DNA from: Delftia acidovorans NBRC 14950
Lineage (GTDB): Bacteria; Pseudomonadota; Gammaproteobacteria; Burkholderiales; Burkholderiaceae_C
Direction of reading: 5' to 3'
Assembly: GCF_001598795.1 (NCBI RefSeq)
Contig: NZ_BCZP01000014.1
Location: 120,001 to 152,000 of the forward strand
Length of the DNA stretch: 32,000 bases
Under the pieces are notes generated by a model. It was given only the letters and a program-made list of their open reading frames with translations. It made no database searches and was not told the DNA's origin. This document shows positions 21,880 through 27,469 of this stretch, piece by piece; positions within the stretch are counted from its first letter, which is position 1; each line of letters begins with the position of its first letter. The position numbers and the translations under genes are program-made.

Positions 21880-22500
21880 ATGACCCAGCTTTCCTTTTCC
21901 TCCCGGCCAGGCCCGCGGACCTCCGTCCATCCCCTGCGCAGCCTGCCGAAGCAATGGCGTGCCTGGGCCGGCGAGTCGCGGCTGAGCCGCTTCTGGCAGC
22001 ATGAGCTGATCGTGGGCGACCTGCAGCCCATGCACCAGCAACTGGCCTTGCTGGCCGTCGCGCTGGACGAGTCCGTGCGCGTGCGCTATGCGGGCAGCCC
22101 GCGCCCCGCGGTGGAAGACGCCATACAGCAGCTTGACCTGGCGGTGCTGGACCACCAGCACTTTCTCACCACGCTGGCCACGGGCTGGCATGCCCTCTAC
22201 GAATTTCCTGCCTACCAGCGTCTGCTCAAAGGCTTCAGGGAGGCCGTCCACGCCTGGCAGCAGTCCGTGCTGGTGGGCGATGCCCAGGAGCCCGAGCACT
22301 TCCGGCGCTGCGAGCGCCTGGGCTGGCGTCTGCTGGGCGATGCCTGCCTGCTGACGGACATGTTTGCCGAATCCGCTGCCGTGGCCGGCGAAGCCGATGT
22401 GACTTCCATCCTGTCTGGTTACAAGGCGCGCCGATGGCAACCCTTGAGCGCCGTGCGCCTGGCCCTGCGCAGGCTGCGTGACGCGTTGCTGCGGCGTTGA
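21880..22500 (+). CDS. hypothetical protein (206 aa, Trp/His/Leu-rich, probably helical)
   Basis: The high third-position GC is typical of the real genes here, and the ORF is open only in this frame. There is no obvious SD and I recognise no domain. Confidence 0.55.
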   Translation: MTQLSFSSRPGPRTSVHPLRSLPKQWRAWAGESRLSRFWQHELIVGDLQPMHQQLALLAVALDESVRVRYAGSPRPAVEDAIQQLDLAVLDHQHFLTTLATGWHALYEFPAYQRLLKGFREAVHAWQQSVLVGDAQEPEHFRRCERLGWRLLGDACLLTDMFAESAAVAGEADVTSILSGYKARRWQPLSAVRLALRRLRDALLRR

Positions 22501-22714
22501 TCGCGCCCCTGCGTGACGCGCAGATGCATCATTTCCCGGGGTTTGCACGTTTTCATGGCTGATGGCAATAAAACTGCATGGCAACGTGATTTTCTACATA
22601 TGCCTGAAGAATTTTTGCGTGAAACTGAGAAAAAAGCAGTTTTTTTGCGTCAATGATTTTGTGCTTTCTCTCTGTGGCACGGTGAAGGGCTGCTTCCCCG
22701 CCCTCATGTCCATG

Positions 22715-22744
22715 TTGCACTGCGAAAAATGACTGTGCTACATT
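22715..22744 (+). promoter_or_regulatory. candidate sigma70 promoter for the aromatic leader transcript
   Basis: TTGCAC (22715-22720), an 18-nt spacer, then TACATT (22739-22744). The leader ATG is at 22753. Confidence 0.35.
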
Positions 22745-22752
22745 CGATCCCC

Positions 22753-22815
22753 ATGCAAGCCCGTGCCTCCTTCTACTTTTACTTTTGGTTCTCCTCCCCG
22801 GCGGAAGAGAGGTAA
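22753..22815 (+). CDS. candidate attenuator leader peptide MQARASFYFYFWFSSPAEER
   Basis: ATG..TAA spans 20 sense codons. Codons 7-13 (22771-22791) are TTC TAC TTT TAC TTT TGG TTC, i.e. F Y F Y F W F. It lies 125 nt upstream of the DAHP synthase start and directly upstream of an intrinsic terminator. Confidence 0.7.
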   Translation: MQARASFYFYFWFSSPAEER

Positions 22816-22842
22816 GCGCGCGCACCCGAACAAACCTCCCTC

Positions 22843-22883
22843 AAAACCGCCGAAGCTGTAAAGCCCGGCGGTTTTTTGTTTTT
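22843..22883 (+). terminator. attenuator terminator in the DAHP synthase 5' leader
   Basis: AAAACCGCCG (22843-22852), a 13-nt loop, CGGCGGTTTT (22866-22875), within the T tract TTTTTTGTTTTT (22872-22883). Confidence 0.8.
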
Positions 22884-22940
22884 CCCTCCCGATTCTTCGC
22901 TCCGTTTTCCACGATCCATCTTTCCTCACGAAAGCAAGCA

Positions 22941-24098
22941 ATGACTGCTCATCAAGCTTCCCTCGCCGATTCCTGGTATCGCGGCGGTTCCCAAAAGACT
23001 GGCCAAACCGACGACGCACGTATCAAGGACATCACCGTGTTGCCCCCTCCCGAGCACCTCATTCGCTTCTTCCCCATCCGCGGTACGGCCGTGGAAACCC
23101 TGATCGGCGACACCCGCCGCACCATCCACAACATCATGGCTGGCGAGGATGATCGCCTGCTGGTCATCGTCGGCCCCTGCTCCATCCACGATCCGGCAGC
23201 CGCCATCGAGTACGCACGCCGCCTGGCGCCCATACGCGAGCAGTACAAGGACACGCTGGAGATCGTGATGCGCGTGTACTTCGAAAAGCCGCGCACCACC
23301 GTGGGCTGGAAGGGTTTGATCAACGATCCCTACCTGGACCAGAGCTACCGCATCGACGAAGGCCTGCGCATTGCGCGGCAACTGCTGATCGACATCAACC
23401 GCCTGGGCGTGCCGGCCGCCAGCGAGTTCCTGGACGTGATCTCGCCCCAGTACATTGCCGATCTGATCAGTTGGGGCGCCATCGGTGCGCGCACCACGGA
23501 AAGCCAGGTCCACCGTGAACTGGCCTCGGGCATCTCGGCGCCCATCGGCTTCAAGAACGGCACGGACGGCAACATCCGCATCGCCACCGACGCCATCCAG
23601 TCGGCCAGCCGCGGCCACCACTTCCTGTCCGTGCACAAGAATGGCCAGGTTGCCATCGTGAACACGGCGGGCAACCAGGATTGCCACGTCATCCTGCGCG
23701 GCGGCAAGACCCCCAACTACGACGCGGCCAACGTGGCCGCTGCCTGCGAGGATCTGGAAAAGGCCGGCCTGCCTCCCACGCTGATGGTGGACTGCAGCCA
23801 CGCCAACAGCTCCAAGCAGCATGAGCGCCAAAAGGATGTGGCACGCGACATCGCCGGACAGATCAGCGGCGGCTCGCGCAGCGTCTTCGGCGTGATGATC
23901 GAAGGCCATCTCGTGGGCGGCGCCCAGAAGTTCACGCCCGGCAAGGATGAGGTGGCTGCGCTGACCTATGGCCAGAGCATCACCGATGCTTGCCTGGGCT
24001 GGGATGATTCCCTGGCAACGCTGGCCGAGCTGTCCGACGCCGTGCAGCAGCGCCGCGTCAAGCATCCCGAGCCGGCTGCGGCCCTGGTTGCCGCCTGA
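22941..24098 (+). CDS. aroG: class I 3-deoxy-D-arabino-heptulosonate-7-phosphate (DAHP) synthase
   Basis: Start MTAHQASLADSWY at ATG 22941. The track's 22785 start is a non-ATG upstream extension across the attenuator. Motifs LLVIVGPCSIHD, RVYFEKPRTTVGWKGL and DCSHANS. Feedback specificity (Phe, Tyr or Trp) cannot be read from the sequence. Confidence 0.92.
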   Translation: MTAHQASLADSWYRGGSQKTGQTDDARIKDITVLPPPEHLIRFFPIRGTAVETLIGDTRRTIHNIMAGEDDRLLVIVGPCSIHDPAAAIEYARRLAPIREQYKDTLEIVMRVYFEKPRTTVGWKGLINDPYLDQSYRIDEGLRIARQLLIDINRLGVPAASEFLDVISPQYIADLISWGAIGARTTESQVHRELASGISAPIGFKNGTDGNIRIATDAIQSASRGHHFLSVHKNGQVAIVNTAGNQDCHVILRGGKTPNYDAANVAAACEDLEKAGLPPTLMVDCSHANSSKQHERQKDVARDIAGQISGGSRSVFGVMIEGHLVGGAQKFTPGKDEVAALTYGQSITDACLGWDDSLATLAELSDAVQQRRVKHPEPAAALVAA

Positions 24099-25176: not shown

Positions 25177-26616
25177 TCAGCCTGTGGCTTGCAGCGCCGC
25201 CAGCAGCTTGGGGTGAATGCCACCGAAGCCGCCATTGCTCATGCACACCACGTGGTCACCGGGGCGGGCGGCTGCGCGGATCTGCCCGATCAGCGTATCG
25301 ATGTCTGCAGCCACCTGCGCCTTGTGACCGGCTCCCACGCCCAGGGGGCGCAGCGCCTCGGCAGCATCCCAGTCCAGGCCGGCCGTGTGGCAGAACACCA
25401 GATCGGCGCTTTCCAGGGCCCAGGGCAGTTGCGACTTCATGGTGCCCAGCTTCATGGTGTTGCTGCGCGGCTCGAACACCGCCAGGATGCGCGTCTGGCT
25501 GGCGAGCTTGCGGCGCAGGCCGTCCAGCGTGGTGCGGATGGCCGTGGGATGGTGGGCGAAGTCGTCGTAGACGGACACGCCACCCGCCATGCCGCGTAGC
25601 TCCATGCGTCGCTTGACGTTCTGAAAGCGCGCCAGCGCTTCGCAGGCCTGCGCCGGCGTCACGCCCACATGCTCGGCCGCTGCAATGGCGGCCAGCGCAT
25701 TGAGCTGGTTGTGCTCTCCGGTCAGTGCCCATTCCAGGCGCGCGACCTTGTGGCCACGGTGCAGTACGTCGAAGGCGCCGGGATCGCCCTGGGCACTGAA
25801 ATCGCTGACCACCGCACCGAAGCTGGAGACCTCGCTCCAGCAGCCCTGGTGCAGCACGCGGGTGATGCTTTCCTCTATGCCGTTGACCACCAGCCGCCCG
25901 GAGGCGGGAACGGTGCGCACGAGATGGTGGAACTGGCGTTCGATGGCACCGAGGTCCTCGAAGATGTCGGCGTGGTCGAACTCCAGGTTGTTGAGCACGG
26001 CCGTGCGCGGGCGGTAGTGCACGAACTTGCTGCGTTTGTCGAAGAAGGCCGTGTCGTATTCATCGGCCTCGATGACGAAGACGGGCTCCGCGCCGGCCGG
26101 CCCCTGGCCTGGCGTCGGTCGGCTGGATGCGCCCAGGCGGGCCGAGACGCCGAAGTCCAGCGGCACGCCGCCGACCAGAAAGCCGGGAGCCAGGCCTGCG
26201 CATTCGAGAATCCAGGCCAGCATCGACGTCGTGGTCGTCTTGCCGTGGGTGCCGGCCACGGCCAGCACATGGCGCGGGCAGGACGGATGGTGCAGCACCT
26301 GTTCGCAAAGCCATTGCGGACCGCTGGTGTAGGGAGCGCCGCTTTCAAGAATCGCCTCCATCAGCGGGAACTTGGGGCTGCCGTCGGGCAGCCGCGCGCG
26401 GCTGACCACGTTGCCCACGACATACATGTCGGGTTGCAGGGCCATCTGGTCGGCGCCGTAGCCCTCGATCAGGTCGATGCCCAGTGCACGCAACTGATCG
26501 CTCATCGGCGGATAGACGCCGGCGTCGCAGCCTGTGACGCGGTGCCCAGCCTCGCGCGCCAGTGCGGCCAGTCCGCCCATGAAGGTGCCGCAGATGCCCA
26601 GAATATGTATGTGCAT
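25177..26616 (-). CDS. mpl: UDP-N-acetylmuramate:L-alanyl-gamma-D-glutamyl-meso-diaminopimelate ligase (murein peptide recycling)
   Basis: Start MHIHILGICGTFMGGLAALA at 26616. The track ORF runs spuriously upstream to 27156. Motif [11 protein letters not shown], and the N-terminus is nearly identical in pattern to E. coli Mpl. Confidence 0.92.
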   Translation of the reverse strand: MHIHILGICGTFMGGLAALAREAGHRVTGCDAGVYPPMSDQLRALGIDLIEGYGADQMALQPDMYVVGNVVSRARLPDGSPKFPLMEAILESGAPYTSGPQWLCEQVLHHPSCPRHVLAVAGTHGKTTTTSMLAWILECAGLAPGFLVGGVPLDFGVSARLGASSRPTPGQGPAGAEPVFVIEADEYDTAFFDKRSKFVHYRPRTAVLNNLEFDHADIFEDLGAIERQFHHLVRTVPASGRLVVNGIEESITRVLHQGCWSEVSSFGAVVSDFSAQGDPGAFDVLHRGHKVARLEWALTGEHNQLNALAAIAAAEHVGVTPAQACEALARFQNVKRRMELRGMAGGVSVYDDFAHHPTAIRTTLDGLRRKLASQTRILAVFEPRSNTMKLGTMKSQLPWALESADLVFCHTAGLDWDAAEALRPLGVGAGHKAQVAADIDTLIGQIRAAARPGDHVVCMSNGGFGGIHPKLLAALQATG

Positions 26617-26860
26617 GGCCGGGCATTCTACGGTTGCCGTCATGTCCGGGAGGGCTGTCCTGCAAAAACAGGAGCTTGCGGCCCAGCAGGCGCGGGGTCC
26701 CGGAAACACAAGGTTGCGAAATCGCCGTTGCAAGGCGCTGGCGGGAACGTGCAAAGCCCGTCTGCGGCCGGCGGTGCCGCGGCTTGGGTCACAATGGCCC
26801 GGGGCCATCCGCAGGGAAGGCCTCTTATATATATGTAGGGATACAGCGGATCGGAAAGCC

Positions 26861-27469
26861 ATGGACCAAGCCACTGCCGAAATTGCCCAGACCGCGGCCC
26901 GCCTCGTGGTCGAGGAAGGGCTGGAATGGGGGGCTGCCAAGCACCGCGCACTTCGCCAGCTGGGGCTGCCCGCGCGCACCGCGCTGCCGGGAAACGACCT
27001 GGTGGAAGAGGCCGTGCGCGAATACATTGCCCTGTTCTGCGCCGACACCCAGCCCCAGGAACTGCAGGCCCTGCGCGAACTGGCCCTGCAATGGATGGAC
27101 CGCCTGGCCGAGTTCCGACCCCATCTGGCCGGCGCCGTCTGGCGCGGCACAGCCACCCGCCTGTCCGATATTTACCTGCAGCTGTTCTGCGACGACCCCA
27201 AGTCGGCCGAGATCGCGCTGATCAACCAGCATGTGGAGTACGAGCCCAGCACCGTCACCGGCTTTACGGGGCAGGCCGTGGAGGCCTTGAGCATCCACGC
27301 CTTCTGCCGCCCTTTGAACGAGTCCGTGGGCGTGCATCTGCTGGTGTATGACCATGATGATCTGCGTGGCGCACTCAAGCCCGACGGCCAGGGGCGCAGC
27401 CCGCGCGGCAGCGCCGAGGCGCTGCGCAGGCTGTTGGATCAGGATGAAGAGGAGGCCGACCGTGGCTGA
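26861..27469 (+). CDS. hypothetical protein (202 aa) with a degenerate Pol-beta-type nucleotidyltransferase-like motif
   Basis: ATG 26861 (MDQATAEIAQ). GAVWRGTATRLSDIYL resembles the minimal nucleotidyltransferase motif GSxxRGTAxxxSDIDL. The acidic C-terminal tail overlaps the next gene by 8 nt. Confidence 0.55.
   Translation: MDQATAEIAQTAARLVVEEGLEWGAAKHRALRQLGLPARTALPGNDLVEEAVREYIALFCADTQPQELQALRELALQWMDRLAEFRPHLAGAVWRGTATRLSDIYLQLFCDDPKSAEIALINQHVEYEPSTVTGFTGQAVEALSIHAFCRPLNESVGVHLLVYDHDDLRGALKPDGQGRSPRGSAEALRRLLDQDEEEADRG

Follow-up and report, generated by a model that had tools for sequence, protein, structure and literature searches.

A candidate ribosome-mediated attenuator with a mixed Phe, Tyr and Trp leader upstream of aroG in Delftia acidovorans and its relatives

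In gammaproteobacteria the genes for 3-deoxy-D-arabino-heptulosonate 7-phosphate (DAHP) synthase, aroF, aroG and aroH, are under TyrR/TrpR control (PMC5343134). The locus studied here raises the question of whether the same enzyme step can be tied to aromatic supply in another way. In a 32,000-nt stretch of the genome of Delftia acidovorans NBRC 14950 (contig NZ_BCZP01000014.1, positions 120,001 to 152,000; hereafter the window), an aroG gene encoding a class I, AroG-like DAHP synthase is preceded by a short open reading frame (ORF) in which seven Phe, Tyr and Trp codons follow one another, and then by a hairpin that ends in a T tract. A TyrR operator was considered and rejected, because no site resembling the E. 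coli consensus TGTAAA-N6-TTTACA, with up to three mismatches, occurs in 22300-23000. The present analysis, which combines sequence comparison with modelling of RNA folding and ribosome position, suggests instead that the element is very probably a functional ribosome-mediated leader-peptide transcription attenuator controlling aroG. Where E. coli links this step to aromatic supply through the DNA-binding repressors TyrR and TrpR, the link in Delftia would be made by RNA.

The sequence features from which a preliminary description of this DNA had proposed such a device were all found in their places by direct reading of the window. Specifically, the intrinsic terminator begins 27 nt past the stop codon of the leader ORF and consists of AAAACCGCCG, a 13-nt loop and CGGCGGTTTT (22866-22875), running into TTTTTTGTTTTT. 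The heptamer CCGGCGG occurs in two copies, one within the end of the leader ORF (22798-22804) and the other in the 3' arm of the terminator (22865-22871), and smaller complementary blocks are formed by CCTCCTTC (22766-22773) and GAAGAGAGG (22804-22812), and by GAGG (22809-22812) and CCTC (22835-22838). Following the usual numbering, the pairing partners are called segments 1 to 4 (Table 1).

Together, these elements suggest the following course of events. Transcription would start from a conserved extended -10 promoter, and a ribosome, probably loading straight onto a 5'-terminal AUG, would read the 20-codon ORF with its seven successive aromatic codons. If charged tRNA-Phe, tRNA-Tyr or tRNA-Trp were scarce, the ribosome would stall in the run, leaving segment 2 (CCGGCGG-GAGAGG) outside; the free segment 2 would pair with segment 3 (CCUC...CCGCCG) once the latter emerged, and the resulting antiterminator would sequester the terminator 5' arm and let RNA polymerase read into aroG. 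With plentiful amino acids, the ribosome would reach the stop codon (in every relative 6-31 nt downstream of where segment 2 begins) and would cover segment 2. Segment 3 would next pair with segment 4 (CGGCGG and the U tract), and the transcript would end after about 126-131 nt.

Table 1. Features of the aroG leader region and the gene that it precedes (positions in the window)
Feature	Position	Strand	Description
-35-like hexamer	22715..22720	+	TTGCAC, 18 nt 5' of the -10; weak, kept in close relatives only
Extended -10	22736..22744	+	TGcTACATT = TGCTACATT; TG 22736-22737, hexamer 22739-22744; invariant columns in 78-sequence alignment
Predicted transcription start	22751..22753	+	on the A of the leader ATG or 1-2 nt 5' of it; placed from -10 spacing
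Leader ORF	22753..22815	+	20 codons + stop; ATG 22753, TAA 22813-22815; translation MQARASFYFYFWFSSPAEER
Candidate segment 1	22754..22774	+	5' part of ORF, can pair with 22803-22824; part of minimum-energy fold, not above shuffles
Aromatic codon run	22771..22791	+	TTC TAC TTT TAC TTT TGG TTC; n = 7 (4 Phe, 2 Tyr, 1 Trp)
Segment 2	22798..22813	+	core CCGGCGG (22798-22804) and extension GAGAGGU (22807-22813)
Segment 3	22834..22852	+	ACCUCCCUC (22834-22842, pairs with segment 2 extension) and AAAACCGCCG (22843-22852, terminator 5' arm)
Intrinsic terminator	22843..22883	+	hairpin 22843-22875; segment 4 CGGCGG 22866-22871; U tract TTTTTTGTTTTT 22872-22883
aroG	22941..24098	+	class I DAHP synthase (AroG-like), 385 aa; TIGR00034 540 bits, NF006723 (AroG) 558 bits, Pfam PF00793

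Do relatives keep this arrangement? Two sets of aroG loci bear on the question. A protein-guided scan, with one genome per species, gave 80 loci that are 78-96% identical, all of them from Comamonadaceae genera, and a scan of metagenome contigs, using a consensus query midway between the Comamonadaceae and Cupriavidus AroG proteins, gave 80 more. Three genome loci have under 185 nt of sequence upstream. In all the others (77/77) there is an ORF of 16-30 codons that starts with ATG, holds a run of Phe, Tyr and Trp and is followed by a terminator, the ORF lying 80-142 nt upstream of aroG. Five metagenome loci end at a contig edge (the terminator is still visible in two of them); among the 75 that could be evaluated, 72 have the leader ORF together with the terminator. 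Across both sets, ORF and terminator lie 60-150 nt upstream of aroG, and in all 149 related loci that carry the element it is directly upstream of this gene. The aromatic ORF, the terminator and the copy of its 3' arm are accordingly conserved across the Comamonadaceae and into the Sphaerotilaceae, the latter represented by a metagenome locus (L143) that has the leader and encodes the exact AroG of Aquincola tertiaricarbonis and Aquincola sp. J276.

The limits of this distribution are visible in the same material. The leader ORF is absent from three metagenome loci with full upstream sequence: L154, whose protein belongs to a Cupriavidus cluster, L160, which belongs to a large cluster of proteins from metagenome-assembled genomes of freshwater Burkholderiaceae and Betaproteobacteria, and L161. 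In L160 and L161, whose proteins are 72-73% identical to that of the window, 400 nt of upstream sequence hold neither an aromatic ORF nor a terminator, and these two loci mark the edge of the element's distribution. In Cupriavidus sp. EM10 (75% identity), Burkholderia stagnalis and Caballeronia insecticola, the aroG-like genes examined have neither an aromatic ORF nor a T run on their upstream side. On this sampling, the element appears to span the Comamonadaceae and at least part of the Sphaerotilaceae and to end before the Burkholderiaceae proper. A protein similarity search returned close relatives only, the window AroG being 99-100% identical to Delftia proteins, as fits a Delftia-like member of the Comamonadaceae, and did not define this boundary; a DNA search of a plasmid collection with the leader region gave no match.

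The composition of the leader peptide is what a device that reads aromatic codons would need. Over 78 leaders the mean content is 4.4 Phe, 1.7 Tyr and 1.05 Trp; Tyr is present in 78/78, Trp in 77/78 and at least three Phe in 77/78. The order of these residues is permuted among genera (FYFYFWF, YFFYFWF, FYFWFF, FYFAYFWF), as is typical of a codon sensor and not of a folded peptide. Insertions and deletions in the run come in multiples of three, and about 150 loci retain the start codon, the open frame and a stop inside segment 2 or directly behind it. Codon choice in the run is also distinctive: of the Phe codons, the rare TTT accounts for 65% in the leaders and 18% in the adjacent aroG, and of the Tyr codons, the likewise rare TAT accounts for 37% in the leaders and 19% in aroG. 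This preference could tune the sensitivity of stalling or serve RNA pairing.

Beyond the codon run, conservation follows the RNA. Blocks without any variation in the 78-sequence alignment are GGCGG (22800-22804), GAG.G, ACCGCC (22846-22851) and GGCGGTTTT (22867-22875), and the cores of segment 2 (GGCGG), segment 3 (CCGCC) and segment 4 (GGCGGUUUU) are nearly invariant. Segment 2 is read as CCC-GGC-GGA (Pro-Gly-Gly) in 129 sequences and in another frame (P-A/S-P-A, also given as Pro-Ala-Glu) in 18, including the window, and its persistence across this change of frame indicates that it is conserved as RNA and not as peptide. From the beginning of segment 2 to the stop codon the distance is 6, 13-15 or 21 nt, reaching 31 nt in a few sequences.

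These details bear on the idea that the leader is an arrest peptide like TnaC, which would sense free aromatic amino acids in the ribosome tunnel and not the charging of tRNA. The resemblance is superficial, TnaC having a Trp and a terminal Pro-stop, and many genera conserve a leader with W-F-S followed by Pro-Gly-Gly-stop. The Pro-Gly-Gly is, however, a by-product of the RNA motif CCCGGCGG, and the window and 17 other sequences use another frame and end in another peptide. The three stop distances are equally at odds with a conserved arresting C terminus, and where TnaC regulation is of Rho-dependent design, the element has a canonical intrinsic terminator and an antiterminator. Moreover, the logic would be inverted, since stalling at amino-acid abundance would induce a biosynthetic gene. 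The frame changes, the three stop positions and the strong intrinsic terminator led us to discard an arrest peptide, which we regard as the least probable of the explanations weighed here.

Attenuation by competing RNA structures also requires that the proposed antiterminator can rival the terminator. Folded alone, the window terminator hairpin has an energy of -18.4 kcal/mol (z = -4.6; 0/200 shuffles as stable) and the antiterminator (22792-22853) one of -18.8 kcal/mol (z = -2.1; 3/200 shuffles), and over the 78 sequences the means are -18.5 and -19.3 kcal/mol, respectively, so that the antiterminator is energetically competitive on the comparison that the preliminary description had called for. 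The minimum-energy fold of segments 2 and 3 pairs all five core bases in 76/78 sequences, and the interior of the antiterminator is more stable than dinucleotide shuffles in 72/78 (mean z = -1.39). A scan of the window with simple promoter and terminator patterns called neither a hairpin nor a promoter, because its rules bar loops of more than 8 nt (here 13 nt) and a -35 hexamer that matches at three of six positions.

The helix that extends the core is built from differing sequences in different genera: GAGAGG:CCUC in the window, CGAGA:UCUCG in Limnohabitans, and GAGUUC...GAAUUC in the Curvibacter group. For this extension, in 67% of cases a sequence pairs better with its own partner than with those of other sequences, and the base pair flanking the core is retained in 128/147 sequences. 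Of the compensatory changes that such a switch might be expected to show, one clear example was found: in locus L077 the three segments have changed in concert (CUGGCGG / CCGCCAG / CUGGCGG), and its relative L052 represents the G-U intermediate. Apart from L077, the support for the antiterminator consists of invariance and per-sequence folding. Taken as a whole, these comparisons leave the terminator and the antiterminator, both predicted structures, well supported.

Many genera (for example at L032, L039, L149 and L151) have, in addition, a small extra hairpin in the antiterminator loop, formed by ACGU...ACGU or GCGC...GCGC. The 5' half of this hairpin is a GCGC block that is able to pair with the start of the ORF, which hints at a further alternative pairing.

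For the two structures to be governed by translation, the ribosome must cover or expose segment 2 according to where it stands. A footprint simulation, in which 28 nt (A site -15 to +12) were masked on the window RNA, showed the antiterminator forming in the nascent transcript with the A site on any codon through the Trp codon (22786) and blocked with the A site from the last Phe codon through the stop. In the comparative set, 140 sequences have a Trp codon, and in 137 of these 14-21 nt separate the start of the last one from segment 2, a distance comparable to that in the E. coli trp leader; over 147 sequences, stall site, segment 2 and stop codon keep their spacing. Simulation and spacing together bear out the proposal that a ribosome at the stop covers segment 2 and that an early stall frees it. 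They modify a second proposal of the preliminary description, according to which stalling at the last Trp and Phe codons would partly mask segment 2 and the device would respond mainly to Phe and Tyr: the last Phe codon does block the antiterminator, whereas the Trp codon, which 77 of the 78 leaders contain, leaves segment 2 free, so that there is no ground for excluding Trp sensing.

How the ribosome would enter this ORF is suggested by the promoter. In 147/150 loci a TAnnnT hexamer precedes the start codon of the leader by 6-9 nt (mode 7); it reads TACATT in 106 loci, and TG stands two bases 5' of it in 146 of the 147 loci that have it. The -35 region differs among genera, which is what an extended -10 promoter would predict. 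A pyrimidine directly precedes the leader start codon in 144/147 loci, and a Shine-Dalgarno-like motif was seen in 1/147 leaders, compared with 127/147 aroG genes. The arrangement of an extended -10, a gap of 5-9 nt, an ATG and an ORF of at most 45 aa occurs once in the 32-kb window. From the spacing between -10 and ATG and the lack of a Shine-Dalgarno sequence, the transcript probably starts on the AUG or no more than 1-2 nt from it. The leader ORF would then be leaderless, a feature that had gone unrecognised in the first reading of this DNA. An in-frame ATG at 22729, which would give a 28-aa leader (MTVLHSIPMQ..., 22729-22815, + strand), was rejected as the true start; hardly any relative has it, and it overlaps the -10 element.

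Leaderless leader ORFs have precedents. One is the trpL/rnTrpL transcript of Sinorhizobium meliloti (PMC7298713), and others are the predicted leader peptides of Deinococcus deserti (PMC4007540); in these cases the mapped transcript start lies at the start codon of the leader ORF or 1 nt before it, and there is no Shine-Dalgarno sequence. The aroG element would share this feature with both, its own start being placed from the -10-to-ATG spacing; the amino acids, genes and phyla are different.

Two observations were made around the promoter. Within the 67% GC window, the stretch 22570-22680 is AT-rich and contains a weak hairpin followed by a T run (AAACUG...CAGUUUUUUU), which folds at -13 kcal/mol (z = -0.85) and may be the terminator of the upstream ORF or an UP-element-like promoter context for the leader. 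None of the ORFs overlapping the leader on the minus strand matches a known family.

The missing Shine-Dalgarno sequence also feeds a quite different explanation, in which the small ORF is untranslated, the hairpin is an ordinary terminator, for instance of the upstream gene, or part of a leader controlled by a protein or metabolite, and the aromatic codons are a by-product of U-rich RNA. The U-rich run can indeed pair with the purine-rich GAGAGG, and it is by inference that the ORF is held to be translated. A conserved promoter, however, stands between the upstream gene and the ORF. The upstream gene, moreover, varies (a relative of the 206-aa ORF that precedes the leader in the window is found in 15/83 loci, and tldD in 65), whereas the element keeps its place at aroG, so the hairpin is not the terminator of the upstream gene, and that version was rejected. 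The remainder is opposed by the start, the open frame through the run and the stop position, which are kept in about 150 loci despite insertions and deletions, and by the conservation of UGG and UAY codons and not of U-richness alone; a riboswitch or other leader is not indicated by any Rfam match. We consider an untranslated ORF highly improbable.

The Rfam searches returned the following. Nothing relevant was found when the whole window was scanned at the gathering score, and the families Phe_leader, Trp_leader, His_leader, Leu_leader and Thr_leader had no match in 22600-23000 at E-values up to 10. A match to ohsC was discarded, being merely the terminator hairpin read on the minus strand.

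Several points weigh against the proposal that the element is an attenuator of aroG. All of its support comes from sequence elements, conservation, energetics and modelled geometry, and from these we infer the start site, the translation of the ORF and the response to amino acids; efficient leaderless translation in Betaproteobacteria is an assumption. The whole leader has a minimum-energy fold that combines the 1:2 helix with the terminator. At equilibrium the terminated conformer comes out the more stable by about 8-10 kcal/mol in every case, so antitermination must be kinetic, as in the classical attenuators. In nascent RNA without a ribosome the minimum-energy fold is already the antiterminator, and the default of an untranslated transcript may therefore be read-through and not super-attenuation. 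Column-wise covariation on a MAFFT alignment was weak and uninformative, the core pairs being without variation and the extension helices thrown out of register by insertions and deletions, and RNAalifold, applied to 57 diverse sequences, returned no more than the invariant core; the compensatory stem changes sought in relatives were thus borne out by L077 and L052 and not by formal covariation. The 1:2 helix is not above dinucleotide shuffles, either in the window (22753-22826: -19.8 kcal/mol, z = -0.43, 67/200 shuffles) or over the alignment (mean z = -0.26), although a sequence's own partner is slightly better than a foreign one (68% of cases). The preliminary description had seen a full 1:2 / 2:3 / 3:4 architecture; of this, 2:3 and 3:4 held up, and a 1:2 helix, not exceeding what base composition gives, is possible and unproven. 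Finally, the statistical tests count related sequences as independent, and Fisher P-values are to be read as indicative only.

An explanation that would leave attenuation as one part of the picture is that the roughly 130-nt terminated RNA, as a small RNA, or the 20-aa peptide, as a small protein, acts also or mainly in trans. An RNA that starts with AUG and ends at a strong terminator would yield a discrete, stable transcript, and in S. meliloti rnTrpL, which starts at the trpL ATG, acts in trans (PMC7298713), rnTrpL and peTrpL providing the precedent. The GAGAGG and GCGC blocks, in addition, are conserved beyond what the weak 1:2 statistics explain. The element is, however, always directly upstream of aroG (149 loci), and the C-terminal half of the peptide is not conserved as a protein and changes frame. 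Action in trans, as an added or as the main role, is compatible with attenuation and seems unlikely.

If the element is an aroG attenuator, how does it compare with the known systems? With pheL-pheA and trpL-trpEDCBA of E. coli it shares a short ORF rich in codons for the end products, a segment 2 complementary to the 5' arm of an intrinsic terminator, a logic in which a stalled ribosome frees segment 2 and a ribosome at the stop covers it, and a distance of about 14-21 nt from the regulatory codons to segment 2. It differs from them in matching none of the Rfam leader families by sequence or structure, in regulating the first enzyme of the common pathway and not a gene of a terminal branch, in mixing Phe, Tyr and Trp codons, in the lack of a Shine-Dalgarno sequence before a probably leaderless ORF, and in a 1:2 helix that is statistically unsupported.

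A functional parallel lies outside the Proteobacteria. In Corynebacterium glutamicum, an AroR leader peptide with the sequence Phe-Tyr-Phe is described as attenuating the DAHP synthase gene aroF (Neshat et al. 2014, as cited in PMC11802643 and PMC4046766), and aroR-aroF is reported to respond to Phe and not to Tyr. The two systems share an aromatic leader peptide before a DAHP synthase gene and ribosome-mediated attenuation, a likeness of function only; the C. glutamicum leader has only Phe-Tyr-Phe, compared with the seven aromatic codons, including a conserved Trp, of the Delftia leader. Since C. glutamicum is an actinobacterium, the two probably arose independently. The preliminary description had called a mixed Phe, Tyr and Trp leader on this step an unusual design; attenuation of a DAHP synthase by an aromatic leader is not without precedent, and any claim of a design that lacks one has to be softened. 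The target and the composition of the leader are unusual for Proteobacteria.

A comparative study of regulons in Proteobacteria (Leyn 2016, PMC5343134) makes no mention of an aroG attenuator in Comamonadaceae, and a wider check of the literature, including Naville 2010 and Weinberg 2010, found no description of the element, although an earlier one is possible, curated regulon databases having been outside the search. The mechanism is classical, and the conserved family is probably undescribed, with an unusual target and a three-amino-acid make-up unusual for Proteobacteria, and with a leader ORF that is probably leaderless. A more far-reaching reading, to which we give an even chance, is that this undescribed Comamonadaceae and Sphaerotilaceae family uses one leaderless ORF to integrate the charging of three aromatic tRNAs, gates entry into the shikimate pathway in place of TyrR/TrpR circuitry, and produces an RNA of about 130 nt that might act in trans like rnTrpL.

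Should attenuation of aroG by this element be true, it would show how carbon entry into aromatic synthesis is controlled in a large environmental group of Betaproteobacteria, including Delftia, Comamonas, Acidovorax, Variovorax, Limnohabitans, Polaromonas and Aquincola, for which comparative regulon studies report no TyrR/TrpR-type control of the step. It would represent a natural RNA sensor with three inputs (Phe, Tyr and Trp) on a single gene, and a proteobacterial attenuator whose leader ORF is translated without a 5' untranslated region, which bears on the coupling of the lead ribosome to RNA polymerase. In practical terms, it would offer annotators a recognisable small ORF and RNA element, and a target for deregulating flux through the shikimate pathway.

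The genes around the element were also inspected. The window AroG has an N-terminal extension of about 20 aa (22941-23010, + strand) beyond the family profiles, which match it from residues 19-24 onwards, and its score against the AroG model is just under that model's own cutoff. Upstream of the leader lie tldD and the 206-aa ORF (21880-22500, + strand); this ORF has no Pfam or NCBIfam match and may not be a real or conserved gene. Downstream, on the opposite strand, are a DUF446 gene, an unknown ORF and mpl. The Mpl profile match begins at residue 182 of the long ORF that contains mpl (25177-27156, - strand), so that the true start of mpl is probably near 26610 and the first 540 nt or so of this ORF (about 26610-27156) may belong to something else.

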